Of a DNA stretch of 64,000 nucleotides, positions 2,996 through 52,436 are shown piece after piece. A program made the position numbers and the translations under genes. Position 1 is the first letter of the stretch. Every line of letters starts with the position of its first letter. The DNA is from Naegleria gruberi (lineage: Eukaryota): NCBI GenBank assembly GCA_000004985.1, contig GG738847.1. One strand, written 5' to 3'. The notes under the pieces are model-generated. The model made no database searches. It was not told where the DNA came from and saw only the letters and a list, made by a program, of their open reading frames with translations.

Positions 2996-4207
2996 TTATA
3001 TTGTAAGATCTATTAATTGTTTCATTTCAGTGAAGTATTTTGTTCCTTCTTCAGTAATAAAATTGTTTCTAATATCAAGTTTGGTCAATTGTTTCAATTC
3101 ACTAATGTATTTAGCTCCTTCATTACGAATCTTATTGTTATTAATATAGAGATAGATCAATTTCTTCAATTCTCCAATAGGCATAGCTCCTTTATCGCCT
3201 AAATGATTAGTTTTAATATCAAGATAGATCAATTGTTTCAATTCACTTAAATATTGAGCTCCTTCATCTCCAATTCTATTATAAGATAAATCAAGACTTT
3301 TTAATTGTGCCAATTGACCAAAATATTCAAGTCCTTCATCACCAATATCATTTTTACAAATATCAAGATTTTTCAATTGATTCAATGAACTAATGAATTT
3401 AGATCCTTCATTTCCAATACGATTGCTATTAATATGAAGAGTGGTCAATTGTTTCATTTTGCTTACATATTTAGCTCCTTCATCACCAAGCCAATTACTG
3501 GAAATATCAAGACAGGTCAATTGTGTTAATTCACTTAAATATTTAGCTCCTTCAGCACCAATATCATTTTCATCAATAGAAAGAGTGGTCAATTGTTTCA
3601 ATTCACTTATGTATTTAGATCCTTCATTACCAACACGATTGCAAAAAATAATAAGAGTGGTCAATTGTTTCAATTCTCTTAAATGTTTAGCTCCATACTC
3701 AGAAATACCATTACTAGGAATACTAAGATAGGTCAATTGTTTCAATTCACTAATATATCGAACTCCCTCATCACCAATATGACTTCCATAAATCGTAAGT
3801 TTGGTCAATTGTTTCAATTCACTTATATATTTAACTCCTTCTTCATCATCACATCTAATGATAAGTTTAGTTAATGATTTCATCAAGATTAATTTTCTAT
3901 AGGTATCCCTTGTGATCACACCAACTTTAAGAGTTGCAATATTCTGTAAAAATCGGCCACTCATTCCACCAACACCACCAAATCTACAATTCAGATTGAG
4001 ATGATTACATGTTGATAAAATAACATGGAACCACTCTTTGGATACCAATGCACAATTCATGACAATAAATTTAAAATCATCCAAGAAGGACAAAATTTCA
4101 TAAATAATGTCAGTGGGGAATTTATAATCTTGCGACAGTAAGTTCTCCGTACTTGTTTCTGCTTCTTCTTTGTGTGAAAGTTGGATACACATTGTGTGTT
4201 TGTCCAT
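2996..4207 (-). CDS. F-box / RNI-type leucine-rich-repeat protein: N-terminal F-box plus ~13 x 24-aa LRRs (LKQLTxLxIxxNxIGxEGAKYIS)
   Basis: Single exon. ATG at 4207-4205 in caaaaaaaATGgac context, TAA at 2996. The F-box motif is PTDIIYEILSFLDDFKFIVMNCALVSKEW. The 72-bp DNA periodicity (agtgaattgaaacaattgacc...) is visible by eye. Confidence 0.85.
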   Translation of the reverse strand: MDKHTMCIQLSHKEEAETSTENLLSQDYKFPTDIIYEILSFLDDFKFIVMNCALVSKEWFHVILSTCNHLNLNCRFGGVGGMSGRFLQNIATLKVGVITRDTYRKLILMKSLTKLIIRCDDEEGVKYISELKQLTKLTIYGSHIGDEGVRYISELKQLTYLSIPSNGISEYGAKHLRELKQLTTLIIFCNRVGNEGSKYISELKQLTTLSIDENDIGAEGAKYLSELTQLTCLDISSNWLGDEGAKYVSKMKQLTTLHINSNRIGNEGSKFISSLNQLKNLDICKNDIGDEGLEYFGQLAQLKSLDLSYNRIGDEGAQYLSELKQLIYLDIKTNHLGDKGAMPIGELKKLIYLYINNNKIRNEGAKYISELKQLTKLDIRNNFITEEGTKYFTEMKQLIDLTI

Positions 4208-4653: not shown

Positions 4654-7600
4654 ATGTACATAAAACCATCAAGATCCTCTTCACAGCTGAACAAACACTT
4701 CATATTCCTATTGATTCTCATCATATTGTCCATTTCCTTCATTAATGCACAATCCAAGACAATCATCTTCCTTCCCTTCTGTTCCTCCCTCACAATCTCT
4801 CCAACCAGTAAGGTATTGAGCTCCAACTCACTCTCTCTTACAATATCAGCTCCGAACACTCTGTGGTAGGTTTATCATATATTCGGAATGTTAACATTTG
4901 TAAATTGTTAAGGTTGCCAAAATCAACAGGCCAATATTATCAATTGAACACCTTGACAGCGAGTGATGCTACTGAACAGATCAAGTCACTAGTCGTTCTG
5001 TCTGATCCTAAGGCTGGTGTTGCTAGATCTCCTTCAACTGTTTCTGTTCTATCTGCTTCATCATTTAGTGTTCAATTTACTGGATTGACTAGCAATGCTC
5101 GATTCACATTATTAATTGCTTATGGATTTGCTTATTTGGATGTGGAAACTACCAGTTATGTTCAATTAATTATGATATCCTCACAGTCAGTGTATAACTA
5201 TGCTACAGGAACAGCTCAAATTGAGACATTTGCTTTACAGAACTCGTATGAGAGCTCATTGGGTCAATTTTGTTTATCTAATTTATCTCCATATGCATTG
5301 ACATATCTTTCTCAAATTGATAATATTCGAAACAATGTATTTTCATCTCCATATCTTCAATCTCAAAAATTAATTCTCAATGGTAAATGGAATGGACAAC
5401 CAACTTTACAAAAAATTACAGAATTTGTTTCGAATGGATTCACCTATCAATTGAAGAGTAGTATTGATATCCAATTCCAAGAATTAGCAAATACTCAAAT
5501 CATAATTCCTTTACAATTCAAGAGACATATTGGAGCTGTCTTTGAAAAGATTGATATTGATGATTTCAAGATTAGTGAAAGACCAGCTGATCCGCAAGAA
5601 TTGGAAAGTCTATTCGAAAGGATACGTCAAGAAACTATCTTTTACAAGGTGAGTCTTGATCCTAATACCGCTCCAGTCTCTCAGGAATATTTAACAGGAG
5701 CAGCTGCTGAAACTAATGTTGCCATTCTAATGACCTATGCCTATTACTGGGCAGATTTCTTTGATTGGTATCGTAATCCAATGGTCAGAGTGATAATCAA
5801 GGATGGTATTATTGGAATGATTAGTATTTCAGTGGCAGGTCTCAATTATTTCACATGTCCTTATGGTTCTCTTCGTAGTGAGATACAACACTTTACTCAG
5901 GGAGACTCCTACCATTCGATTGGTTATTCCTCCATCCATTCGATATACACATTTGCCTATGATCAAAAGAATTGGAAAATCAATACGCAAGTGAATATCA
6001 ATACTAATGGAATGGTTGCAAATGTTGCCAGCCTGTCAAATTTTGAAAATTCCTTGAGTTGCATTGATGGAAATTTCAAAGTAACCCTCTCGGATAATGT
6101 ACTAGCAGATTATGAAAGCTTTTTCACTGATAACTATATGATTTCCAAGATTGATACTAGAATGTCCATTCAGTCAATTGAAAATTTTACACTTCTCTAC
6201 GTTGACGATTTGGGAAGTGAATTCACAGGCCCATTAATTACACCAGAGAGTTTCGTTGGAGATTTGCAATTCAATCCAGGATTTTGTGATGAAACTATTG
6301 GTACTGGATTAGGAAATCAATTATCTTACTATTTTTCTTCTAGTGATTTTTCAGTCGAAAGGTTTCCAGAATATTCGACAAGATTGAGCTATGAAAATGG
6401 AGTTTCTTATCTTTCAGATACAAATTCTGTTGGTTTAAAGTATTCCAATCATGAATATTTGCAGGATTTCTCCATAGAAATTGATCAATCTATTCTATTA
6501 TATAAGGAACCCAAAGTTTCATCTGTGAATTTCACATTAATTCCAAATCGTTCAGAATGGAATGAAATGAATGCTACAATTCAAATATTTTCCTTTAACA
6601 GTGGGGATTGGGGTGGTGAATTCACTGTTGAATTGACTTGTTCCTATCCAATCATAATTTCCAATAATTCGCCTCAGAAATTCAACGTGGAGCCAGGACA
6701 AAACTTTACAGCCTTCTTCACTGTCAAGAGTGATTTCGACTCGTGCAAAACTGTATCCCTCCAATCTGTGTGTGATTTCAAAATTTCCATCAAGAAAGAA
6801 CAATTGTGGACTAATCTAGAAAAGGAAATTTCTGCCCATGAATCTGTGGCCATAGATTATGGATATTTCATTCCAAGATGTCAAGCCAAATATAATGAAC
6901 CATTCCTCTGGCTGGAGAATATGACCCTATCCTCTCCATATTTCCAGAGAAGTGCCCATGATGGATTTGTCAACTCAATTCTCGTAGTTTTGAAAACTAA
7001 TAGTTCAGATTTAATCCTTTCGAATATTGCAAGCGGTCTGTTGGCAGATTCTAATAATCCATTCCACTCATGGAAAGATTACTCAATTATTATGCAACAT
7101 GCTGAATATTACATGTTGAACTTTACGATTTCAAGCACAAACGTTGCTAGAATTTTAAGTGAACGAGTTGACCAAACGCTTTACACATTCTCCCTCAATT
7201 TAACTCTATTAGATAATTATATTTGTTGGTCAACAAATGGAAAAGGAGGAATCTTCCCATTTTCCTTTAGTGTTGCCTACGATTGTCCAATCGAGTATAC
7301 CGGTATCCAATGTGATATTCCATTATGTTATGGAATTAATGCAACCAATTATACGAACGTATGTTCAGGTCATGGTGATTGTGTATCGCCAGATTATTGT
7401 TCCTGTCATGCAAATTACACATCTGCCACCTGTTCTGTTCCTATTTGTTATGGTGTTCGTGGAGATAATTTATCTACTTGCTCATCCAAAGGTTCTTGTA
7501 TAGATGCTAATACCTGTACCTGTCAGAATGGTTATACAGGTGTCAATTGTGAAATTCCAATTTGTTTCAATGTTCCAGCTAATTTTTCACATTCATGTTA

Positions 7601-10600
7601 TGGACATGGTAACTGCATTGATCATGATCTTTGTTCATGTAATGATGGATACACTGCTTCATTGAATTGTTCACTTCCAATATGTTATGGATTAGATTCT
7701 AGTCAGCTAATTGTTTGTTCTTCACATGGACAATGTTTGGCTCCAAATAATTGTTCATGTTTTGATGGTTTTACATTCGATAATTGTTCAATTCCAATTT
7801 GTTACAATATTGATGCTTCCAATAGTTCAGTGTGTACTGGATTTGGTGAATGTTATTCTCCAAATAATTGTAAATGTCATGAAAATCATATTGGATTACA
7901 ATGTGAAATTCCAATTTGTTTTGGAGTTCCATCAAATGAAACTCAGTCGTGTAATGGTAATGGACAATGTATTCAATATAATGAATGTGTGTGTCATTTA
8001 GATTATACAGGACTCAATTGCTCCATTCCAATATGTTTTGGAAGTAATGCCACCAACCCAACTGTTTGTTCTTCGCATGGCGTTTGCCAAGCACCAGATC
8101 AATGTCAATGTCATGAAGGATATACTGGAATACAATGTGAAATTCCAATTTGTTTCAACATTCCAGCAACCAATTCCAGCACATGTTCATTCCATGGAGA
8201 ATGTATCGACCATAATCTTTGCACATGTCATGATGGATACACTGCTGCATTGAATTGCTCCCTTCCAATATGTTATGGATTAGATTCTAGTCAATCAATG
8301 GTTTGTTCTTCACATGGTCAATGTTTGGCTCCAAATAACTGTACATGTTTTGATGGTTTTACATTCGATAATTGTTCCATTCCAATTTGTTACAACATAG
8401 ATGCTTCCAATAGTTCAGTATGTAGTGGATTTGGTGAATGTTATTCTCCAAATAATTGTAAATGTCATGAAAATCATATTGGATTACAATGTGAAATTCC
8501 AATTTGTTTTGGCGTGCCATCAAATGAAACTCAAGCTTGCAATGGTAACGGACAATGTATTCAATATAACGAGTGTGTGTGCCACTCAGATTATACAGGA
8601 ATAGACTGTTCAATTCCAATATGTTTTGGAATTAATGCTACTAATCAAAGTCATGTTTGTTTTTCACATGGTATTTGTCAAAAACCAGATCAATGCCAAT
8701 GTCATGAAGGATATACTGGAATGCAATGTGAAATTCCAATTTGTTTCAATATTCCAGCTATTAATTCCAGCACATGTTCATTCCATGGAGAATGCATTGA
8801 TTTCAATCATTGTTCTTGTCATGATGGATACACTGCTTCATTGAATTGTTCACTTCCAATATGTTATGGATTGGATTCTAGTCAGCTAATGGTTTGTTCT
8901 TCACATGGTCAATGTTTGGCTCCAAATAATTGTTCATGTTATGAAGGATATACAGCTGAAAATTGTTCCATTCCAATTTGTTACAACATTGATGCTTCCA
9001 ATAGTTCAGTATGTAGTGGATTTGGTGAATGTACTTTTCCAAATAATTGTAAATGTCATGAAAATCATGTTGGATTACAGTGTGAAATTCCACTTTGTTT
9101 TGGCGTGCCATCAAATGAAACTCAGTCTTGCAATGGTAATGGACAATGTGTTCAATATAATGAATGTGTGTGTCATTCAAATTATACAGGAATAGATTGC
9201 TCAATTCCATTATGTTTCAATATCAATGCCACCAACCCAACTGTTTGTTCTTCGCATGGTATTTGTCAATCACCAGATCAATGCCAATGTCATGAAGGAT
9301 ATACTGGAATGCAATGTGAAATTCCAATTTGTTTCAACATTTCAGCTAATGATTCCAGTACATGTTCATCCCATGGAGAATGTATCGATTTCATGATCTT
9401 TCACTGTCATGATGGATACACTTCAGCAAATTGTTCAATTCCAATATGTTATGGATTAGATTCTAGTCAATCAATGGTTTGTTCTTCACATGGACAATGT
9501 TTGGCTCCAAATAACTGTACATGTTTTGATGGTTTTACATCTGATAATTGTTCAATTCCAATTTGTTACAACATAGATGCTTCCAATAGTTCAGTATGTA
9601 GTGGATTTGGTGAATGTTACTTTTCCAAATAATTGTAAATGTCATGAAAATCATGTTGGATTACAGTGTGAAATTCCACTTTGTTTTGGCGTGCCATCAA
9701 ATGAAACTCAATCTTGCAATGGTAATGGACAATGTGTTCAATATAATGAATGTGTGTGTCATTCAAATTATACAGGAATAGATTGCTCAATTCCATTATG
9801 TTTCAATATCAATGCCACCAACCCAACTGTTTGTTCTTCGCATGGTATTTGTCAATCACCAGATCAATGCCAATGTCATGAAGGATATACTGGAATGCAA
9901 TGTGAAATTCCAATTTGTTTCAACATTTCAGCTAATGATTCCAGTACATGTTCATCTCATGGAGAATGTATCGATCATGATCTGTTGCACATGTCATGAT
10001 GGATACACTTCAGAAAATTGTTCAATTCCAATATGTTATGGATTAGATTCCAGTCAGTCAATGGTTTGCTCCTCGCATGGCCAATGCTTAGCTCCAAATA
10101 ATTGTTCGTGTTTTGAAGGTTTTACATTCGATAATTGTTCCATTCCAATTTGTTACAACATAGACGCCACCAACCAATCAGTATGTAGTGGATTTGGTGA
10201 ATGTTCTTCTCCAAATAATTGTAAATGTCATGAAAATCATGTGGGATTACAATGTGAAATTCCGCTATGTTTTGGAATTGCATCAAATGAAACTTTGGCA
10301 TCGTGCAATGGAAACGGCCATTGTTTTGCAGTGGATTCTTGCTCTTGTAATCAAAATTATACTGGAGCCAATTGTTCTATTCCTATTTGCTTTGACTTCA
10401 ATGCCACCAATTCGAAGGTATGTTCGGGACATGGAAGTTGTTCGAAACCAAACTATTGCGAATGTTTTGAAGGTTATATGGACACCCAATGTGAAACTCC
10501 AATTTGTTTTGATATTCCAGCAACTATGAATAATACCTGTTCTGAAAATGGCATTTGCCAAGATTACAATCATTGTAATTGTAGCTCTGGGTTTACTTCT

Positions 10601-13600
10601 TCAAATTGTTCAATTCCTATTTGTTTCGGTTCGAATGCCACTGACGAAACAGTATGTTCCTCACATGGTCAATGTCTTTCTCCTAATAATTGTTCCTGCA
10701 GTGATGGATACATGCATTCAGATTGTTCTCATCCAATTTGTTTCGGGCTTGAATCAACTAATCGAAACTCTTGTTCTACTCATGGCACTTGCATTTCACC
10801 AAATTCATGTCAATGTGATGGCAATCATGTAGGTGACATGTGCGAAATTCCACTTTGTTTCAATATCCCGGCCAATCATAACTCAACTTGCAGCTCAAGT
10901 GGAAAATGCATTGGTGTGAATTTGTGTGAATGTTATGGAAATTTCACAGGAATGAACTGTTCTGTTCCAATTTGTTTTGATGAGAATTCAACTTCCATTA
11001 TGAGTTGCTCGTCGAGAGGAAGATGTATTGGACCCAACCTGTGTGAATGTCAAGTTGGATATACTGGTAGCGTTTGTGAGTATCCTGTTTGTTACGGTTT
11101 CTATTCGGAAGATGTAAATTCATGTTCAGGACATGGAGAATGTATTGACTATAACAAATGTCAATGTGAAAATGGGTACGTTACTGAGAATTGTTCCATT
11201 CCTGTGTGTTTTGGTTTGAATAGTTCAGATTCCAATGTTTGTGCTTCCCATGGCGATTGCTTGTCACCAAATAATTGTTCATGCCATGAAGGATTTACAT
11301 CAATCAATTGTTCCATTTCAATTTGTTATAATTCACCTGCCACTGACCCATTTGCATGCAATGGAAAAGGAAATTGTGTAAATCCAAATGAATGCGCCTG
11401 TCAAGAAGGTAACATAGGATTACAATGTGAGATTCCACTTTGTTTTGGCGTGCCATCAAATGAAACTCAGTCTTGTAGTGGTAATGGAGAATGTATTCAA
11501 TATAATGAATGTATGTGTCATTCAAATTTTACAGGACTCAATTGTTCCATTCCAATATGTTTTGGTATAAATGCCACTGATCAAAGTCACGTTTGTTTTT
11601 CACATGGTATTTGTCAAGAACCAGATCAGTGTCAGTGTCATGAAGGATATACTGGAATACAATGTGAAATTCCAATTTGTTTCAATATTCCAGCAACCAA
11701 TTCCAGTACCTGTGCATCCAATGGAGTTTGCATTGATTTCAATAATTGTTCTTGTCTTGATGGATACACTTCGGAAAATTGCTCCCTCCCAATATGTTAT
11801 GAATTGGATTCTGGTAAATCAATGGTTTGTTCTTCACATGGTCAATGTTTGGCTCCAAATAATTGTACATGCCTTGAAAGATTTACATTCGATAATTGCT
11901 CCATTCCAATTTGTTACAATATTGATGCTTCAAATAGTTCAGTATGTAGTGGATTTGGTGAATGTTCTTCTCCAAATAATTGCAAATGTCATGAAAATCA
12001 TATTGGATTACAATGTGAAATTCCACTTTGTTTTGGAATTCCATCAAATGAAACTCAGTCGTGTAATGGTAATGGACAATGTATTCAATATAATGAATGT
12101 GTGTGTAATTCAGATTATACAGGAATAGACTGTTCAATTCCAATATGTTTTGGAAGTAATGCCACCAACCTAACTGTTTGTTCTTCGCATGGTATTTGTC
12201 AATCACCAGATCAATGTCAATGCCAAGAAGGATACACAGGTACCAACTGTGAAATTCCCATTTGTTTCAACATTCCAGCTAATGATTCCAGTACATGTTC
12301 ATCCAATGGAGAGTGCATTGATTTCAATAATTGTTCTTGTCATGATGGATACACTTCAGAAAATTGTTCAATTCCAATATGTTTCAATTTGAATAGTACT
12401 GATTCTAGTGTTTGTAACTCTAATGGAATTTGTACTTCCCCTGACAAGTGTCAATGCCAAGAAAATTTCACAGGTGAAAATTGCTCAATTCCAATATGTT
12501 TCGGATTGGCAGCAAACTCAAGCGGGGCATGCTCCGCATCTGGAAGTTGTGTTTATCCCAATACATGCCTCTGCAACCAAGGAATCATTGGCATTAATTG
12601 TGAAATACCTTCCTGTTTTGGAATATTCCAAAATAATAGCCAATCCTGCTCAGGAAATGGAATTTGCATTGAACTGAACAAATGCTCATGCTACCTAAAC
12701 TTCACAGGTGAATCCTGCTTAATTTCTGCATGTAATGGTATTGCCTCTAATGATAGCTCTGTTTGTTCCGGAAAAGGAAAATGCACAGCTCCAAATCTTT
12801 GTGAATCATGTGAGGAAAATTACTTTGGAGAATGGTGTGAAATTTCACAATGTTTTGGAATATTCTCGAATCAGAGTCAAGTTTGTTCTGAAAATGGAAA
12901 GTGTGAATCTTACAATAATTGTAATTGCTCAATGGGTTATGTTGGGGAAAATTGTAATATTCCTGTATGCTTTAAAATTAATTCAACCGATGAAAATGTT
13001 TGTAATTCTAATGGAATTTGTACTTCTCCTGATTTGTGTTCATGTAATTCCAAATATGGAGGTTTAGAATGTTCAGAACCGAAATGTTTTGGAAAAACAA
13101 CATTAGAAGGTGCATGCAGCTCGAAAGGTAATTGCACACAACCAGATTCATGTACTTGTGAGAAAGGTTTCTTTGGTATTTCATGTGAATTGCATTCTTG
13201 TTTTGGAATTCAATTGAATGATTCGAGTGTGATTTGTTCTGGACATGGTGAATGCAAATCTCTGGACGAATGTGAATGTGACAGTGGTTACTTAGGTGAA
13301 TCATGCTCCATCCACACCTGTTTTGGGATTACATTCAATGAGAGTGGTGTTTGCAGTGGAAATGGAAGTTGCTCAAGTTTGGACAACTGTACCTGTTATG
13401 GAGATGGAAAATTCTATGCAAATTGTACTTTAATTCCAAGTGATTCTCCAATAATTGATAGTGATGTACCTTCGAATCATACAGAAATATCCAATAATTC
13501 AAGTTCTTATCCAAATTGCTTTAACATTTCGGCAAATCATTCGAATGTTTGCAATGGAAATGGAAATTGCACAAGTGAAAATGAATGCAAATGCAGAGAG

Positions 13601-15835
13601 GGATATTTTGGTGGGGAATGTTCTCTATTTGCATGTTTTGGAAAGGAATCAGCTGATTCAAGTGTTTGTTCATCCAATGGAATATGCGCGAGTCCAAATA
13701 CTTGTAAATGTCGACCAGAAAGATATGGCTCTCAGTGTCAACTTGTCAAATGTTTTGAAATTCTTTCTAATCAGTCCAATGTTTGTTCCAGTAAGGGTTC
13801 ATGTCAAGATACCAACGCATGCATATGTAATGAGGGCTATTTCGGCCCCATGTGTAATATCACAAGTTGTGAAGGAATTTTGAGTAATAATTCTCAAGTT
13901 TGTAATGGAAGTGGACAATGCACTCATTACAACACTTGCCAATGTAAGGAAGGATTCATTGGATTGAACTGCCAATTCACCAAATGCAACTCTACATCGT
14001 GTAGGCATGGAAGTTGCATCACTACCTCTCAGTGTGAATGCGAAAGTGGATGGACAAGCTCGGAATGCAATCTTCCTATTTGTTACGATTTGTTGGCAAG
14101 TGACTCGAATGTTTGTTCTACACATGGCAAATGTATAGCTCCAAATAAGTGTAACTGCTCCACAAATCCATTGTACATGGGTGATAAGTGCCAATACTTA
14201 CAATTAGATAGTTTGCAATGTAGTATTAATCCATCACTCAATTTGATACCAATTGAGTGGACAATTTCAGGATTGGATAAAATAACATTTGATATGAGCT
14301 CGAAGGAAATACTTGTTAGAAACAGTATCCCATACAGTACATCTCTCCATTCCAAATCAAAATTCAACTACGAGCTCAATATTTACAACACTGGAAAGCG
14401 ATCTTTCAATTATCAAATTAATTCATTCTGTGAAAATGGAATTTCATTCAAACAATTGGGAATTTCTTCTCAATTCGGATTATTACAAGAAGGAAACAAT
14501 GCAAATATTAAGGATTTACAAAATATTGGATTTGCTCTCTTTTGGAATGATGAAAGTTTGAAATATGAAGATATTAAATGTCATGTCGAATTAATAGTCA
14601 ATCCGAAAGATCAATTCGATGAATGTCAACACTACGATTCGAATACTGAAACATCCTCCAAATATAATATTACTCTCATATTGGAACGTACAAATGTTTG
14701 TCAATTTTTGAAAGAAACAGATTTACCACTGACCTTTTCAAGCACTCAATTGTCAACCATGAGTGAAATAGCTCTAATTGATGAAAATATTCTTTCAGAT
14801 AACGATATTCTCAAAATTATTAATACATTCACTCAAAAGAGGAATAACTGGCAAATAATTAATAAGGACAACAGTACTCTTCAAGCTAACATCTTGTTAA
14901 CTGCCCAGTTGAGTAATCCAAACAATGAATTGGGACTTTTTGTTCCATCTCTGATATGTAAGGATGAAAGAATTGTTGATGACATAGAATTTACCACAGA
15001 ATATCTTTCCAATCAATCTCCATTCTCCATTTCTCACTCTCTACAAAAGATTCAATTCCAATTCAATGTTACAATTAAGAATGTTTCGAATTATGTTGAT
15101 TATGGTAGAGTGAGAGGAGGAAAGGAAGGAATGGCAACAGTTCTCATTGAGGACATGCTCCTTAATTGTTCTCTCATTCTCCTACCAAATCCATCTGAGT
15201 GTTGGTCCAACACGAATAGAAATTCCACATTCTCCAAATATATCATTTCACACTTTACACTGCCAATTGTTTCTGGTGAATTTTCATTCTTCCAAGCTGT
15301 GAGATCCTTCGAAATAGGTATCATTACACTTACCTACACTTGTATGGGCATTGGTTTTGCATCCATGATATGCACGACCAAAGTTCCTCGAGATCGAAAA
15401 CATTCTCTGCTCCAACTTGTAGAATTTGTCAAGGAAAAGAGAAGAAACAAACTCAACTCTACATCTGATGACTCCAAACCACTCCTAGAGAATCAAATTG
15501 ATAGGCCATACTGTGAAAATTGTGGTCATCACACTCGGAAGAAAGCTCGTTATGCCATTCGTGTGGAAAATTATGATGCTAATTGCGAAATGTTCATTTG
15601 TGAGAATCAGGTATGTTTTGAAGCCATGATCTCTCTCCACAATAGAGGATACTCCCATCACTATCAATGTTTCGACTTGGATAAAGAAGAAGATTGTCAA
15701 CTCATGATTGAAACACCATTCAAGACACTTGCTGATAATTTTGATGAGTCGGATATTTATGAATCTATGGATATTGAATTTCCAATACCTTCCGATATCA
15801 ATGATGATGAAGAAGATGACTCTGATTTATTCTAA
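4654..15835 (+). CDS. Giant type-I transmembrane protein (~3,700 aa). Signal peptide, ~750-aa non-EGF N-terminal region, ~58-60 tandem tenascin-type EGF-like modules, a TM helix and a Cys/His-rich cytoplasmic tail. The reading frame is interrupted twice (near 9613 and 9985)
   Basis: Exon 1 is 4654..4807 (ATG in aaaaaaaATG context; signal peptide FIFLLILIILSISFINA). Intron is 4808..4929 (GTAAGG...ACAG). Exon 2 starts at 4930 in the frame of track ORF 4863..9632. Modules follow C-x-(I/V)-P-(I/L)-C-(F/Y)-x(5-8)-C-x(2)-(H/N)G-x-C-x(4)-C-x-C-x(2)-G-(Y/F)-T-(G/A)-x-x-C. Track ORFs 4863..9632 (frame 0), 9577..9999 (frame +1) and 9812..15835 (frame +2) are consecutive pieces of the same repeat array, separated by two 1-nt insertions. 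The TM helix is GIITLTYTCMGIGFASMICTT; the tail CENCGHH...C-x(n)-C is zinc-finger-like. Stop TAA is at 15833-35. Confidence 0.7.
7550..12840. repeat. Higher-order tandem repeat (~587 bp = 5 EGF modules) within the giant EGF gene
   Basis: Anchor gaaattccaatttgtttcaa recurs at 7551, 8139, 8730, 9318, 9904, 11664 and 12251. Copy 9043-9400 is near-identical to 9629-9990. The middle units (10000-11600) are more diverged. Confidence 0.8.
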
Positions 15836-26072: not shown

Positions 26073-27608
26073 TTATGTTGTTGTTAATTGAATACCAATT
26101 GGTAGTGAGCTTGAAATGTAAATGAAGAAACAAACCTTGTTTTTCAAAAAGGAGAAAATTCCTCCATCATTACTAGGAGAGGATTGAGAATTGGCAGAAG
26201 AGTGTGAATTACTATTCACTCCCACTTGAGAAATATTTCCATAATGTCCAGGAAGGAAGGAGTAAAGTTTTTCAGACCCTCCTTTTGTGTTATTGATTTC
26301 GAATGCTGGAATATCACCATGATTAGTATTGTTGGGTTGAAGGGTATTGAGGGTTGGTATCTTTTTCATATCTTTGGTTTTGGGATTGAGAATAATTTTG
26401 AGGTATTCTTTCATTTCCATATTCAAATGTTCAGGGAATATTACATCAAATAATACAACTAGGTTTCCATATTGTCCTTTTTTGCCTTTAATAGGCATTC
26501 CTTTTCCAGGGATAGCTTTCTTTTGACCTGGCTGAATGACTTCATCAACCTTGACCACAATTTTTGAATTGTTTTCAATAGAGTCCAGAGTAATATTGAA
26601 TCCTGTCAGAGCTTCCAATAATGTAATAGTTCTATTAATTAACAAGTCATCTCCACTGTATAGAAATTATCAGAATGTTTAACATAAATAATGCTATTCA
26701 AGAAAATAAAACATACACTCTCTGAAATTCCTTATGAGGAATTTGATGAATTTGAAAGATAATATCACCAGTGCTCTTATTTTGCCATTCATCACCTTGA
26801 TTTTTCAAAACGATACGCTCTCCATCAGCAGTGCCTGGTTCCACATTTACAGTTACAGTATTTACCTCATTCACCAATTTTCTTCCTTTACAAGTGTCAC
26901 ATTTTTTAGTGACATATTGTCCTCTTCCTTCGCAATCCATACAGATGGTAGAGAATTGTTGTACAATATTTCTTGGTAGAGTTCTTCTCATAATTCTTCT
27001 ACCAGTTCCTTTACATGCCTTACAATAGAAAACATGTTCATTTGAGAATGCTCCAGTGCCATTGCAAGTTCTGCATAGGATTTTCCTCTTTTTGGTAAAT
27101 TCTCTCTTGCATCCATGATAGAGTTCCTCTAATGTCACTTCAATAGCGATTACCATTTCCTCTTCCGGTTCCTCTGTTGAGGCATTTGGTTTCTGTCCTC
27201 CAAATAATGATTGAAAGAATCCAAACTGATTTAGATACATATCGAATGGATTCATAACAGAATCAGTCTGGTCAAAATTCTGACTATTCAATCCAGATTC
27301 TCCAAAGGCATCATATTGTTGTCTTTTATCTGGATTTGATAACAATTCGTAGGCTTCAGTAATTTCTTGAAATTTACTTGTAATTTCCGCTTGATTTGCC
27401 TTTGGATTTAAATCGGGATGGTATTGTTTTGCCAATTTCCGATAACTTTGTTTAATTTCCTCATCCGAACAATCCTTTTCTATTAATTAATACAAATTAA
27501 ATTGGCAACATTATAATTATATTAAAATTATTAAATTATTAAATTGTTAAATCGTACCCAATCCGAGAAGCTTGTAGTAATCGTGTTTTGGAGATTTATT
27601 TTTACTCA
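26073..27608 (-). CDS. DnaJ/Hsp40, type I (DNAJA-like): J domain, G/F region, CxxCxGxG zinc finger, C-terminal domains; 3 exons
   Basis: Exon 1 is ~27557..27608 (MSKNKSPKHDYYKLLGL). Intron 1 is ~27480..27556 (GTACGA...AATAG). Exon 2 is ~26717..27479 (EKDCSDEEIKQSYRKLAKQYHPD ... four CxxC repeats). Intron 2 is ~26656..26716 (GTATGT...ACAG). Exon 3 is 26073..26655 (GDDLLINRTITLLEALTGF...). There is no CaaX end. A strong AAG|GTTTGT donor at ~26110 may mark a further short 3' intron. Confidence 0.75.
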
Positions 27609-36482: not shown

Positions 36483-36553
36483 GGGGGCGAGGGGGAATCG
36501 AACCCCCGGCCACAGCTTTGGAGGCTGCGATGTTACCATTACACCACCGCCCC
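36483..36553 (-). tRNA. tRNA-Trp (anticodon CCA), 71 nt, no encoded CCA
   Basis: Cloverleaf folded by hand. Acceptor GGGGCGG/TCGCCCC (G7-U66). D arm GTGT-AATGGTA-ACAT. Anticodon stem GCAGC/GCTGT with loop CTCCAAA (U33, C34-C35-A36, A37). T arm GGGGG-TTCGATT-CCCCC. Discriminator C. Confidence 0.75.
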
Positions 36554-40880: not shown

Positions 40881-42302
40881 TTACCATTCCAAAGATCTTT
40901 TGGATAGAGATTTCAAAGTTGGACTATTTTCAGAGTAGAATTGCGAATACCATCTTCTAAATTGACCTATTGGTCCATCAGTTCTCACCAACACTGGCTT
41001 TGGAAGATAGGTTTTGGTATTCCAAATTGGAATGTCTTGTTCCACAAAGGAGGTCATCAAGATTAAAAACCACTTGGCAAAGAATCTAGGAATATACCAA
41101 GGAACATAGAGAACATGTTCAACATGTTGATGAAGAGGGCCAACTGGAGTTACGGTCTGAACGAGATCAAACTTTCCTAAAATTGTAGAAAACTCAAACA
41201 TGACCAAACCAGGTCCATATTGACCTCCCTTTACATCCACAACACTGAATGGAATTTTCAACCTATCATTCATGGCAGTTGAAACGTGTTGAACTTGAAA
41301 GTAAGCCACATGGGAATCTTCCTTCTTTTCACCTTTTTGCCACTTGGCTCCCCAAATATTCCACACAAATCCAAAAGTATTTCTCATTTCTCTATGGACA
41401 ACATTTAAATGATTGGCATCTGGTCCATTCTCTGGAATTTCCTGAATATGACAATAGATGTGATGAGCAATCTTTCCATGTGTGAAGAGATTTTGTCTTA
41501 CTGATGGTGGTTGCCAATGAGGTTCACGACCCTCTGCATCAAACCACAAATAGACGTTATCATTTCTTTCAATAATTGTATAACTCTTGGTGTGGGCTTG
41601 TGATGGAATGCCATCTCTATGTTCACACTCTTCCACTTGTTCACAAGATTCAGCCAATTTTCCACTCTTGTTTTTTGCAATATCAAGAGTTGAATCTTGA
41701 ACAGATAGCTCACTTTTGAATTGACCATTCTTTTTCAAAATTGGCATTGGAAGTGGAGAATCACCAACGGAAACACATTTTCCCTCTCCATTGAATGACC
41801 AATGATGAAATGGACATGTCAAACATTCACCATTGACACTTCCCAATGACAGATTAGCTCCCAAATGAGTACAGTAAGCATCGATAGCATGAACTGTTTT
41901 GGAATGTTGAGCTCTATAGACAGCTAGTTCTAGACCTAACATGCTCTTGTAGATTACTTGTCCAGGGGAAAGATCCCATGAATTGCAGATTTTGAACCAT
42001 CCATTTGGATAAACTGGTGGAAAGTCACCAATTCTCTTTCTACTCTTGGAAGCCAAGAAGGAAGTTCTGGTGGATGGTTTCATTTCGGAAAGTTTAGGTT
42101 CAAGATCAATGAATCTATCAAGAGGATGAAAGAATGAAGAGTAAACTTCCGAAATCAAACTCTTTAATAATTTCCATACAATTGCAAGCACAATAATTGA
42201 AACTCCCAATATGCAAATGTTATTAAAGCTTGTAATATTTTCCACATCAATTGATTGATAAATTTTGGAAAGTGACTGATGGAAGAGAGTTTCGTCTTGC
42301 AT
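40881..42302 (-). CDS. Rieske [2Fe-2S] non-heme-iron oxygenase, Neverland/DAF-36-like (putative sterol C7-desaturase)
   Basis: 473 aa; ATG at 42302. N-terminal TM helix ICILGVSIIVLAIVWKLL. Rieske motif CTHLGANLSLG...CPFHHW. Mononuclear-iron motif D-A-N-H-L-N-V-V-H. Confidence 0.7.
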   Translation of the reverse strand: MQDETLFHQSLSKIYQSIDVENITSFNNICILGVSIIVLAIVWKLLKSLISEVYSSFFHPLDRFIDLEPKLSEMKPSTRTSFLASKSRKRIGDFPPVYPNGWFKICNSWDLSPGQVIYKSMLGLELAVYRAQHSKTVHAIDAYCTHLGANLSLGSVNGECLTCPFHHWSFNGEGKCVSVGDSPLPMPILKKNGQFKSELSVQDSTLDIAKNKSGKLAESCEQVEECEHRDGIPSQAHTKSYTIIERNDNVYLWFDAEGREPHWQPPSVRQNLFTHGKIAHHIYCHIQEIPENGPDANHLNVVHREMRNTFGFVWNIWGAKWQKGEKKEDSHVAYFQVQHVSTAMNDRLKIPFSVVDVKGGQYGPGLVMFEFSTILGKFDLVQTVTPVGPLHQHVEHVLYVPWYIPRFFAKWFLILMTSFVEQDIPIWNTKTYLPKPVLVRTDGPIGQFRRWYSQFYSENSPTLKSLSKRSLEW

Positions 42303-43224: not shown

Positions 43225-44097
43225 ATGCGTCGACCGGGAATTGAAATTTCCTTTTTTGGAATTCATTTAACTTTTAATTTTATGATGAAATTATGAATGT
43301 TTTATTTTAATATTATTCATGATGTGAAACATCATGTTGAATTCTGTTCATAATATTTAATTCATGATGTGAAACATCATGTTGAATTATTAACAAATGT
43401 TGTTCTTCAATTTTTAATTGAATGTTGTTCTTTCATTGAATGTTGGAAATATTGGAAAGTTGGAAATAAAAGTTGGAAGTTAGGTAACGGGTTATGGAAT
43501 TACCTAATGTGGAAATTGAATTCAATTTTGAAATTGAATTAATACAATGTTTTTTAAATTATTATTATTTAAATGTATTTCACACATTAATTTTGATAAT
43601 GTAATATTAAAGATATTGATAATTGGGTATAGGGAAACGGAATTTCCTAATTGGGAGTCATCACACAATAAATTAAATTTATTATTTATTCATTGATGAT
43701 GTTCACAAACTTTGAATTAACATATTACATGATGAATCAATTACAAAATTAACATCACTATTATTCTGGGGGCAAAATGAACATTAACCATCGGGTAACG
43801 GAAATTGACACATATACCACTTAATTAACAAATTGAATATTAACCATCGGGTAACGGATTTTAATACATGTATTAGTATGTTGATAATTGGTCGACGCAC
43901 AGAAATTTAAATAAACAGAATTAACAAGAATAAAAGCAAAATCCTACATAAGAGTTGGAGAACGGGAAATGAAATTCCCAAATTGAGAAACACAACATGC
44001 ACAATCACAATAATTCATACTATCAAAATGAATTGAACCCGGGTCACGGCGATGGCAACGCCGTATTCTACCACTAAACCATCGACGCTTCTTATTA
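43225..44097 (-). pseudogene. tRNA-Gly (anticodon GCC) gene interrupted in the T-loop by a ~785-bp insertion
   Basis: The 5' part (44097->44030, minus strand) is GCGTCGATGGTTTAGTGGTAGAATACGGCGTTGCCATCGCCGTGACCCGGGTTCAATTC. It gives a perfect acceptor, D and anticodon arm (loop TTGCCAT) plus the 5' T-stem. The 3' part (43244->43225) is TTCAATTCCCGGTCGACGCA. It supplies the T-loop, 3' T-stem, the acceptor 3' strand pairing GCGTCGA, and discriminator A. The 8-nt TTCAATTC is present at both junctions. Confidence 0.75.
43245..44029. mobile_element. Non-coding ~785-bp insertion within the tRNA-Gly gene, flanked by an 8-bp direct duplication (gaattgaa on the + strand); likely a non-autonomous insertion or repeat element of unknown class
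   Basis: No ORF. Content: AT-rich; direct repeat of a 28-bp unit, each with a 7-bp-stem hairpin (catgatg-tgaaa-catcatg) at ~43315-43400; five degenerate copies of a CGGGAAnTGAAA / GGAAtTTCC-type motif; aaccatcgggtaacgga twice; and a GGTCGACGCA fragment in opposite orientation at ~43891-43900. No clear TIRs. Confidence 0.5.
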
Positions 44098-44139
44098 AGG
44101 TACTAAGGCTCATCAAATTTTATTCAAAATGATGTTTTA

Positions 44140-44838
44140 CTAACCAGATTTTTTACAGAAAATCCATTCCAATCCTTCATACAAATTACTCTCATTATCC
44201 GAATGTAGCACCACCATCGTATTCTCCTTCTCATATTCTTGCTCCATAAACTTCTCCACAAATTGTTTAGCCTCCAATGCACGTACTATATGGTCATTGG
44301 TTCTGTGATCCGAATAAATAACAAATAAAATAGGTCGAAAATTCTTCTTCTTTTCAGGAGGAATGAAAAAATAATCATTTTGCCTTTCCACACTATCATC
44401 ACATTTTGCACGTTTTATCATGTCTTTCAATGAAAACATATAGCCATCGAATACTTGTTCAACAGTTTGTGGCCACAATGAATGAATTCTAATCCAAATC
44501 ACAAGTGCATCTCCTCCTTTAATATAATTCGGATACAAGTATTTAATATGAGTATATTTGGAAACATCTCGATCTTCAATAAAGAAATTTTTAAATTCTG
44601 TTTTATAGATTCGAGATTCTTCTTTTATCGGAGAATGTTCATCTGTGATGTGATTTGATTCATAGAGCAGTTTAGCAATTTCCTTATATCCTTCTGCAGA
44701 TACTCCAGAAAAGGAAAAGACAAAAAACTTTTTCTGTGGTCGCCCTACATAATCATAGATTGAATATAAAAATCGATAGATACTTGATGAATAGAGCATC
44801 TGATCAAATTGTTCCAGCAGATCACTAAAATCCATCAT
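44140..44838 (-). CDS. Hypothetical protein (232 aa)
   Basis: First ATG (aaaaaaATGATGgat) is 39 nt inside track ORF 44140..44877. No recognisable family. Confidence 0.45.
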   Translation of the reverse strand: MMDFSDLLEQFDQMLYSSSIYRFLYSIYDYVGRPQKKFFVFSFSGVSAEGYKEIAKLLYESNHITDEHSPIKEESRIYKTEFKNFFIEDRDVSKYTHIKYLYPNYIKGGDALVIWIRIHSLWPQTVEQVFDGYMFSLKDMIKRAKCDDSVERQNDYFFIPPEKKKNFRPILFVIYSDHRTNDHIVRALEAKQFVEKFMEQEYEKENTMVVLHSDNESNLYEGLEWIFCKKSG

Positions 44839-45216
44839 TTTTTTAATATTTTTAATTTTAAATAAAATATTAATCAAATACTCTCATGCTCTACTTTGCT
44901 TTGGTTCTCTCTAAGTGTCATTCTATTTCTGATCATGAAAATTAAATGTTGAAAAATAGAGTTGATGGTAATGGTTGTAAAATCAGATTCAATTTTAAAA
45001 TGGCGCCTAAATTTTGAATATTTGTTACAATAAAACTGTGAGCCAATCAAAAAGTACCAATTCAGAAGTTCTGGGATAGTTGCTGATGGTTGTGCAACAC
45101 GCGCTAAAAATCCGTGCTCGACTGGAGATTTTGAAAAATGCCTCAACAAACATTTATAATGTCAAATGATAACAGTCAACTGTCCAGTATGTTAAAAAAA
45201 ACAACAACATTAAATA

Positions 45217-45540
45217 ATGAATAAGATTACTCTCTGTATTCTCTTTGCTTTGGTTGTCTTGGTTGCTCTCGTTAGTGCCCAACAACAAGAAGAACAATCC
45301 CCAGCTCAACTTTTGAGAAGTATTGCTCGTAGATTGTACCCAAATTCTTCTGATCGTCAAATTGCCAAGAAATTGTTCCCAGGTATTAGAAAGTTGAAGA
45401 AACCAAGCACTGATAAGTTGCTTAGTTTGATTTCTGCTTTGAGTGATTCCCAATCTTTCGATTGTGCTAGATATTGTGCTGGAAGTACTGGAGACTACAA
45501 GGTTTCTTGCTACCAACATTGTCAACGTTATAATTTGTAA
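45217..45540 (+). CDS. Small secreted protein (107 aa) with signal peptide and 4-Cys C-terminus
   Basis: ATG at 45217. Signal peptide ITLCILFALVVLVALVSA. C-terminal C...C-x...C-x3-C. No recognisable family. Confidence 0.45.
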   Translation: MNKITLCILFALVVLVALVSAQQQEEQSPAQLLRSIARRLYPNSSDRQIAKKLFPGIRKLKKPSTDKLLSLISALSDSQSFDCARYCAGSTGDYKVSCYQHCQRYNL

Positions 45541-45868
45541 TTTGGTCGTTGACAAAGTAGTATCAACATTTTGGCAAATTCATCATCATTCGAATAAAGT
45601 TTAGAATTTCGTCAACTACAAAACATCTATTGATAATTTCGGAACAGGGATTCACATGCACAATATTTTGAAATACAACATTACAAGCACTACTGAATTC
45701 AAATTCATACATGTATTTTAAGAATTGATTATTTATTGACACAACAATATTTAATGAAAACTTTCAATTCAAAGAGAAACTATCCATGGTTTAATAAGTA
45801 TAATATCACTACTTCAAATACTCTCATATAAAGTAGAACAAAAGCCACACAACTAACATGCAATTTCT

Positions 45869-52349: not shown

Positions 52350-52422
52350 GGGGATGTAGCTCACATGGTAGAGCGCTTCTTTAGCATGGAAGAGGTACGG
52401 GGATCGATACCCCGCATCTCCA
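52350..52422 (+). tRNA. tRNA-Ala (anticodon AGC), 73 nt
   Basis: GGGGATGTAGCTCACATGGTAGAGCGCTTCTTTAGCATGGAAGAGGTACGGGGATCGATACCCCGCATCTCCA. G3:U70 alanine identity pair. Anticodon loop TTAGCAT. Close match to canonical eukaryotic tRNA-Ala-AGC. T-loop begins A54 (ATCGATA). Confidence 0.85.
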
Positions 52423-52436
52423 CTCAGTATTTTTAA

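Follow-up and report, generated by a model that had tools for sequence, protein, structure and literature searches.

The stretch of DNA analysed here, a 64,000-nucleotide piece of contig GG738847.1 from the Naegleria gruberi assembly GCA_000004985.1 (the whole of which is called the window below), contains a minus-strand gene for tRNA-Gly(GCC) that is interrupted in its T-loop by 784 bp (43246-44029). A perfect 8-bp direct repeat, GAATTGAA, lies on both sides of the insert (43238-43245 and 44030-44037), exactly at the point where the tRNA is split, and the gene is restored when the insert is removed. On balance, the segment is probably a copy of a small DNA transposon of the non-autonomous, cut-and-paste type, resembling a miniature inverted-repeat transposable element (MITE). 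It would have entered the T-loop fairly recently, in one of the multiple copies that N. gruberi has of its tRNA-Gly(GCC) gene. An initial annotation of this DNA had listed a MITE-like family among several origins for the segment, and this remains the best reading; the insert, the split tRNA-Gly and nearly every feature that had been listed are confirmed, with coordinates within 1 nt (Table 1).

The duplication is exactly 8 bp long, with the neighbouring bases differing at the two copies. When 43226-43245 and 44038-44088 are joined, that is, with the insert and one duplicate removed, the result is a perfect 71-nt tRNA-Gly(GCC) cloverleaf, the missing 3' end of which (TGCGTCGACCGGGAATTGAA on the plus strand) is found at 43226-43245. 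In the interrupted state, ARAGORN returns a poor, forced tRNA-Gly(GCC) at 44018-44089 (minus strand), and the Rfam tRNA score is 21 bits, under the 29-bit threshold, because the 3' side is unpaired.

An intact counterpart comes from a scan of JGI metagenomes with the portion of the tRNA from the anticodon to the T-loop. The scan gave one contig, L003 (Ga0247722_10058881), in which the gene is uninterrupted, is identical to the reconstruction at 71/71 positions and has a single TTCAATTC, the octamer in the tRNA sense. By this identity the L003 gene serves as an empty site, though one from a Naegleria relative and not from N. gruberi. The same contig is the sole match in exact-word scans with the tRNA of viral contigs, JGI metagenomes and GTDB genomes. 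Within it (L003:47-277), tRNA-Ile(AAT) and tRNA-Gly(GCC) are paired, with 88 bp between them. The BTB-domain open reading frame (ORF) beside the pair has only 43% identity to N. fowleri and N. lovaniensis proteins, which therefore places an unsequenced Naegleria relative in that metagenome. The loci of the Rieske gene that neighbours the split tRNA, in N. lovaniensis (L001) and in a metagenome relative (L002), have lost synteny and are without a tRNA; the N. fowleri and N. lovaniensis loci matching L003 (L004 and L005) are likewise without a tRNA, and the short contigs related to L003 (L006 and L007) end before it.

The interrupted tRNA-Gly gene copy is presumably inactive. Its 5' fragment, taken together with 44030-44037, retains the A box and 10 of the 11 B-box positions, the latter because the duplication preserves GGTTCAATTC. 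In the tRNA sense this fragment runs directly into ATTTTG of the insert, so that a truncated, non-functional RNA polymerase III (Pol III) transcript is predicted, which should end at the TTTT provided by the first bases of the insert. The tRNA flanks in the window and in L003 end in T runs of four or five.

The insert contains no ORF longer than 57 amino acids (aa) in any frame, in agreement with the initial annotation, and no Rfam family was matched by it. It carries small palindromes and arrays of short motifs that are repeated on one strand. The pentamer AACGG is present five times on the plus strand (once as AAACGG) and is absent from the minus strand of the insert, compared with 11 occurrences on the plus and 9 on the minus strand of the whole 64 kb, and GGTAACGG has three of its four window copies inside the insert. 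The two hairpin units are 29-mers, for which the 7-bp stem and 5-nt loop described earlier are essentially right: folded as DNA, the palindrome CATGATGTGAAACATCATG forms an 8-bp stem with a 3-nt loop (-6.5 and -7.4 kcal/mol, z about -2.6). The 17-mer AACCATCGGGTAACGGA, correctly reported as occurring twice (43786 and 43842), is nested in the 20-mer shared by the two 44-nt units. An arrangement of the insert as a unit of 250-390 bp repeated in tandem two or three times has collinear start and end motifs in its favour, but it was rejected because the alignments behind it are weak (equalled in 8/300 and 15/300 shuffles).

The right arms of the hairpin units (43324-43342 and 43369-43387) are complementary at 17 of 19 positions to 44122-44140, 33 nt past the tRNA 5' end; by BLAST this is at chance level (E about 0.5).

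Table 1. Positions of the split tRNA-Gly(GCC) gene, the target-site duplicates and the repeats of the inserted element in the window
Feature	Position	Strand	Remark
Split tRNA-Gly(GCC) 3' fragment: acceptor 3' strand, T-stem 3' strand, T-loop, including left duplicate	43226..43245	-	cloverleaf on joining; identical in L003
Junction copy J of the 28-nt motif: 13 nt of tRNA T-arm ACCGGGAATTGAA and 15 nt of element left terminus ATTTCCTTTTTTGGA	43233..43260	+	4 mismatches to the 21-nt core
Left target-site duplicate GAATTGAA (TTCAATTC in tRNA sense, T-loop plus 1 nt)	43238..43245	.	single copy in intact gene
Inserted element, 784 bp, 25% G+C, non-coding	43246..44029	+	polarity chosen since all AACGG and core motifs are on the plus strand
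Hairpin unit 1	43315..43343	+	palindrome CATGATGTGAAACATCATG at 43318-43336
Hairpin unit 2, same over 29 nt, 45 bp downstream of unit 1	43360..43388	+	palindrome CATGATGTGAAACATCATG at 43363-43381
Short degenerate tandem repeats (AATGTTGTTCTT, GTTGGAA)	43396..43480	+	
Motif copy M1 AACGGGTTATGGAATTACCTAATGTGGA	43486..43513	+	core match; overlaps GGTAACGG at 43483-43490
Two overlapping AT-rich palindromes of T-loop-like heptamers (AAATTGAATTCAATTT, AATTCAATTTTGAAATTGAATT)	43513..43540	.	
E motif copy 1 ATTTTGATAATGTAATATTAAAGATATTGATAATTGG	43589..43626	+	
Motif copy M2 ATAGGGAAACGGAATTTCCTAATTGGGA	43629..43656	+	core match
44-nt unit copy 1	43773..43816	+	exact 20-mer ATTAACCATCGGGTAACGGA at 43783-43802
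44-nt unit copy 2, 84% identical to copy 1	43829..43872	+	20-mer ATTAACCATCGGGTAACGGA at 43839-43858
E motif copy 2 ATTTTAATACATGTATTAGTATGTTGATAATTGG	43857..43891	+	
GGTCGACGCA, exact tRNA-Gly 3' end, opposite orientation to host gene	43890..43899	+	inverted relative to 43226-43235
Motif copy M3 AACGGGAAATGAAATTCCCAAATTGAGA, 41 nt from right end	43961..43988	+	core match
Right target-site duplicate GAATTGAA	44030..44037	.	direct repeat at junction
Split tRNA-Gly(GCC) 5' fragment: acceptor 5' strand, D arm, anticodon arm, T-stem 5' strand	44038..44088	-	identical in L003

A motif of 21-28 nt, present four times (J and M1-M3), has a 21-nt core, AAYGRAATTYCCWAATTGRGA, defined from the two copies at 43636 and 43968. 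Two more plus-strand matches, each with four mismatches, are found at 43493 and 43240, where 0.007 would be expected by chance. The initial annotation had noted this motif for its resemblance to the antisense of the tRNA T-arm. As a repeat family it is real, with four core matches on the plus strand. Its derivation from tRNA did not hold: upstream, M1-M3 continue alike as RTTGGR, which does not resemble the tRNA, and the T-arm-like motif is therefore the element's own and not a fossil tRNA. The T-loop-like heptamers AATTGAA and TTCAATT occur six times in the insert, where their frequency in the rest of the window predicts 0.78 (P = 1.6e-4), four of the six being AATTGAA.

The two ends of the insert form a perfect inverted match over ATTT...AAAT, and its first 40 nt agree with the reverse complement of its last 40 at 22/40 positions (P about 0.003 relative to random segment pairs); overall, the terminal inverted repeat is weak and imperfect. 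The earlier statement that the segment is neither a transposon with canonical terminal inverted repeats nor a long terminal repeat (LTR) element is supported. A complete LTR, a solo LTR or a terminal-repeat retrotransposon in miniature was rejected, as TG...CA is absent in any end register, the duplication is 8 bp and there are no long direct terminal repeats. Equally, the 10-mer GGTCGACGCA was rejected as the primer-binding site of such an element, there being no TGG, no TG...CA ends and no second LTR. A Helitron was rejected because the ends of the insert are unsuitable and a duplication is present, and a recent mitochondrial insert from a coding region was dismissed for lack of an ORF.

The segment had also been called structured, which is true of its local palindromes and not of any global fold. 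As plus-strand RNA, the whole insert folds no more stably than shuffles (z = 0.1), while as minus-strand RNA the z-score is -3.9, on only 20 shuffles. We note that the fold energies of the two strands are nearly equal (-139 and -141 kcal/mol), and that shuffles of the G-rich plus strand fold as well as the real sequence, whereas shuffles of the minus strand do not. This difference between the strands relative to shuffles therefore identifies the real pairing as Watson-Crick palindromes, not as G-U-assisted RNA structure.

The relative age of the repeats and of the insertion can be read from their divergence. Between copies of the internal repeats, identity is 72-84%, but not one substitution relative to the intact gene is found in the 71 nt of tRNA and the second octamer (79 nt in total). 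Had the 44-nt units diverged in place at neutral rates, equal for units and flank, the probability of zero change in the flank would be about 0.0014. The repeats are therefore older than the insertion, and the segment arrived ready-made. Accordingly, the suggestion that the structure was built in place by repeated local insertion and excision, each leaving a footprint, is rejected as hardly credible: junction-like motifs do recur within the insert, but the motif copies also have in common an upstream sequence that is not tRNA, and the flank carries none of the change seen between the repeats.

The same segment had been taken to be partly derived from tRNA-Gly, in the form of scrambled gene fragments. 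Neither ARAGORN nor Rfam (E <= 1) finds a tRNA-like structure within 43246-44029, the best local alignment between insert and tRNA is equalled by 18/300 shuffles, and the longest exact run by 14/300. The match to the tRNA 5' end that had been pointed out, AACCATCG, is the antisense of tRNA positions 5-12 and carries no meaning, because about one exact 8-mer match (1.08) is expected by chance. The inverted GGTCGACGCA behaves differently. It is exact and in the opposite orientation, as had been reported, although at 43890-43899 and not at 43891-43900, and for a G+C-rich 10-mer in DNA of 25% G+C the chance expectation is 1.5e-5. In a composition-weighted test it is equalled by 1/1500 shuffles; the GG at its start is part of a motif that the element has twice, ATRTTGATAATTGG (43613 and 43878), and when only TCGACGCA is counted the figure becomes 66/1500. 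The comparison with shuffled sequence that had been proposed for the tRNA-like words thus leaves the alignment and the 8-mers at chance level and GGTCGACGCA above it. Most of the tRNA resemblance in the insert is chance, with GGTCGACGCA as the sole exception, which is probably, though not certainly, a captured piece of a tRNA-Gly 3' end.

These results also bear on the proposal of a tRNA-derived short interspersed nuclear element (SINE), or of a patchwork of scrambled tRNA-Gly fragments, which we regard as very unlikely. Like such SINEs, the insert is short and non-coding, it resembles some pieces of tRNA (the inverted 10-mer, the T-arm-like motifs and the antisense 8-mer), and a duplication of this length is possible for them. 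Unlike them, it lacks a tRNA-like head, the A and B boxes and any tail that is A-rich or made of simple repeats, the plus strand ending in ...CAAAAT and the minus strand in ...AAAAAAGGAAAT. In addition, T runs on both strands, a run of six at 43252-43257 and several TTTT runs on the minus strand, would terminate Pol III within the element. The upstream extension of the motif, and the frequency with which shuffles reach the same tRNA alignment (6%), argue further against a tRNA origin.

For a DNA transposon, a sequence of events can be proposed. The repeated motifs of the element, namely the hairpins, GGTAACGG and the GGAATTTCC-type core of 21-28 nt, are putative binding sites for a transposase encoded elsewhere in the genome. 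Like hAT, P, Merlin and some Mutator-type enzymes, this protein would have made cuts staggered by 8 bp in the target and attached the ends of the element to them. A protein that binds the element may also have chosen the target, the T-arm ACCGGGAATTGAA resembling the first half of the motif, AACGGGAAATGAA. Duplications of 8 bp are made by hAT, P, Merlin, Novosib, Zisupton and some Mutator-like elements (PMC3706591, PMC8101967). Besides the duplication and the restored gene, a transposon is favoured by the inverted match between the two ends, by the arrival of the insert with its repeats already diverged, by the strand-specific arrays of short motifs, which resemble transposase-binding subterminal repeats, by subrepeats and motif arrays that are far above chance, and by the surroundings, the 64 kb being ordinary gene-dense host DNA.

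Several observations weigh against it. Only one copy is known, a second one being absent from the rest of the window and from the viral, metagenome and prokaryote collections that were scanned for exact words. The inverted repeat at the termini is weak, and its signal may be partly compositional. The termini, ATTTCC and ATTTTG, do not match the hAT consensus, and the clearest terminal motif is direct and not inverted, with J at the left end and M3 close to the right. Finally, the transposase partner was not identified, and no transposase-like ORF is present in the window.

Some of these points are shared by a reading in which a break in the T-loop was mended with about 790 bp copied from an AT-rich, repetitive stretch elsewhere in the genome, with microhomology (CGGGAA.TGAA on the left, GAATTGAA on the right) priming and resolving the synthesis and thereby mimicking a target-site duplication. 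Both junctions do lie in sequence that recurs within the insert (AATTGAA and the AACGGGAAATGAA-type motif), a clean terminal inverted repeat is absent, and a second copy was not found in the window and the collections scanned. We nevertheless hold templated repair to be decidedly unlikely. A perfect 8-bp duplication with otherwise intact tRNA halves is what transposition classically leaves behind, and microhomology-mediated repair seldom does so; a weak terminal inverted repeat anchored exactly at the ends is not predicted by it; and the donor would need to start and finish, by coincidence, with T-loop-like sequence.

The left junction deserves separate consideration. The J copy of the motif consists of tRNA T-stem and T-loop followed by the left terminus of the element, and thus the insertion rebuilt a full motif. 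The 13 tRNA-derived nucleotides of J, ACCGGGAATTGAA, match M3 (AACGGGAAATGAA) at 11/13 positions, and for the six bases of the core that derive from the loop the probability, calculated from base frequencies, is about 0.03. The rebuilt motif could be a coincidence, microhomology used in templated repair, or a sign that the target was chosen by an element-binding protein.

The last of these possibilities can be taken further, to an element that integrates only into tRNA T-loops, by means of either a Dada-like DDE transposase or a site-specific recombinase. The symmetric T-arm would be the recognition site, mimicked by the element motifs, and in the recombinase version the 8-bp GAATTGAA would be a shared crossover core and not a true duplication. 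We judge such an element unlikely but to be taken seriously. In its favour, the gene that was hit is a multicopy small-RNA gene, and the insertion point is the centre of the T-arm inverted repeat; a copy of the element's own 21-28-nt motif is re-formed at the left junction, with the agreement to M3 given above; T-loop heptamers are 8-fold enriched in the element; and the inverted tRNA-Gly 3' end is what would be expected if earlier copies had lived in tRNA-Gly genes and carried some flank with them. Dada elements have co-transposed flank and have subterminal repeats in common with their target (PMC3706591, PMC8869645). Against this stand the single instance on which target specificity rests, the modest significance of the match for the six loop-derived bases, the differences from Dada set out below, and the fact that no recombinase or transposase partner was identified, no transposase or integrase being encoded in the 64-kb window.

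Rather unlikely, too, is an undescribed heterolobosean mobile family that homes to the T-loop of tRNA genes, or of tRNA-Gly genes, by way of a motif-binding protein that would also recognise the look-alike T-arm. Such a family would carry along pieces of earlier tRNA targets, such as the inverted GGTCGACGCA, and would rebuild its full GGAATTTCC-type motif at the junction. By analogy, it would be a T-loop-specific counterpart, in a eukaryotic nucleus, of Dada or of the prokaryotic integrases that target tRNA genes.

Comparison with known systems places the transposon reading in context. With non-autonomous hAT elements and MITEs, such as Ds relative to Ac, the insert shares the 8-bp duplication, the small size, the AT-rich and non-coding sequence, the short motifs repeated in arrays, to which a transposase could bind, and terminal repeats that are short or imperfect. 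The Ac transposase binds subterminal AAACGG repeats. The AACGG of the insert resembles this site, or Myb sites, a likeness that we take to be only a lead. Unlike the conserved hAT end, 5'-YARNG, the insert ends are ATTTCC.../...CAAAAT, and its AACGG copies are all on one strand, in the centre and to the right, and are not mirrored at both ends.

Prokaryotic integrases (tyrosine recombinases) target the symmetry of the tRNA T-arm or anticodon arm. As for these integrative elements and for Cryptons, the insertion is centred in the symmetric T-arm, the short direct repeat at the ends could be a crossover core, and in a hypothetical circle junction this core would be flanked by 4-bp inverted arms (AAAT/ATTT). 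Such integration normally restores the 3' part of the tRNA, which the insert does not; no recombinase is encoded by it, and the context is that of a eukaryotic nucleus.

In compact genomes, tRNA genes are targeted by retrotransposons, among them TRE5/TRE3 and DGLT-A of Dictyostelium and Ty1/Ty3 of yeast. Here, too, a mobile element is associated with a tRNA gene, and the protist genome is gene-dense, a setting in which multicopy tRNA genes offer safe places to land. Unlike the insert, these elements land upstream or downstream of the gene and not within it, and they are retroelements with coding capacity or LTRs.

A parallel for the choice of target is Dada (Kojima and Jurka 2013, PMC3706591; PMC8869645), which likewise inserts within multicopy tRNA genes, has no clean terminal inverted repeat and carries sequence resembling the target beside the duplication. 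The targets of Dada include tRNA-Gly genes, and its hosts include a protist, Perkinsus; the small-RNA gene that is targeted contains copies of its subterminal repeats, and flanking sequence can move together with the element (PMC3706591, PMC8869645). The duplications made by Dada measure 6-7 bp, are G+C-rich and fall in tRNA nucleotides 8-13, in the anticodon stem, or in GCGTTCA of tRNA-Leu (PMC3706591, PMC8869645). In contrast, the duplication of the insert is 8 bp, AT-rich and equivalent to the T-loop. The resemblance of the junction motif is in direct orientation, again unlike Dada, and the equal distances of the Dada rule are not seen: in the target, TGCGTCGACC and the duplication are 2 nt apart, whereas the inverted copy of TGCGTCGACC is 130 nt from the right end of the element. 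Judged by its sequence, the element departs from Dada in each trait that can be tested, namely the length, the composition and position of the duplication, and the equal distance. With regard to the one-site specificity of Dada, this one copy sits in the T-loop of a tRNA-Gly gene. From this copy alone, without other copies or the partner, the putative transposon cannot be assigned to a superfamily.

Other copies were sought in several collections. For N. gruberi itself the search covered the 64-kb window, and no further copy is present there. BLAST of the insert against about 85 kb of other loci from Naegleria and relatives gave no copy, with only chance-level AT-rich matches or none, and the same kind of result, chance-level AT-rich matches or none, was obtained with E. 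coli genomes, plasmids and phages. Exact-word scans with the hairpin unit and the 20-mer were empty in viral contigs, JGI metagenomes and GTDB genomes, where diverged copies would escape. The literature searched contained no description of the insert's repeat, nor of tRNA-inserted elements in Naegleria. Two intact tRNA genes, tRNA-Trp(CCA) at 36483-36553 (minus strand) and tRNA-Ala(AGC) at 52350-52423 (plus strand), have no insert-like sequence nearby; the density of tRNA genes is about three in 64 kb.

Since nothing alike is found in E. coli, plasmids and phages, the insert is therefore not an insertion sequence acquired as an artefact of the cloning host. More generally, both an assembly artefact and a functional giant T-loop intron of an active tRNA gene are extremely unlikely. 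A chimeric join would not give an exact 8-bp duplication at the precise point where the tRNA is split, and the insert is without a match to cloning-host sequence. Non-canonical tRNA introns do occur in a few eukaryotes, but no group I or other intron family was detected in the insert at E <= 1, and its 784 nt, T-loop position and duplicated boundary are unlike any known tRNA intron, the canonical ones being short and placed at or close to position 37/38.

As it stands, what is probably a small selfish element has disabled one among the multiple copies of a tRNA gene, which matters little in itself, and the main use of the result is correct annotation, as a tRNA pseudogene and an uncharacterised N. 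gruberi repeat. Should the family prove T-loop-specific, it would belong to a rare class, as the elements that insert at one site in small-RNA genes comprise Dada and a few non-LTR retrotransposons. One-site inserters illustrate a way for parasites to persist where genes are densely packed, and they might be put to use for targeted DNA delivery. The rebuilt junction motif offers a concrete hypothesis for how such a target might be chosen.

The window as a whole is gene-dense eukaryotic nuclear DNA of about 33% G+C. It encodes the Elongator subunit Elp4, a WDR5-like protein, a P4-ATPase, a cyclin, an RGS protein and large proteins with epidermal growth factor (EGF) repeats, and in the 64 kb no transposase, integrase or reverse transcriptase is encoded. 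A giant-virus origin of the window is ruled out by this gene content and by its N. gruberi identity. The split tRNA is neighboured by the Rieske-domain ORF (40881-42302), which has 100% identity to an N. gruberi protein at NCBI, and, right beside it on the other side, by three back-to-back ORFs in different frames (44140-45555, minus strand; 245, 91 and 133 aa), which have no Pfam match, are not transposase-like and may be one intron-containing or decayed gene.

Further away, an F-box/leucine-rich-repeat ORF (2996-4207, minus strand) has repeats whose DNA is regular enough for GAATTGAA to appear in it every 72 bp (3093-3820), and it supplies 7 of the 23 window copies of this octamer. Two adjoining giant ORFs on the plus strand (4863-9632 and 9812-15835; 1589 and 2007 aa) consist almost entirely of EGF repeats of the teneurin/tenascin type. 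A DnaJ protein is spread over two minus-strand ORFs about 50 bp apart (26073-26645 and 26698-27435), which are probably one gene with a short intron.

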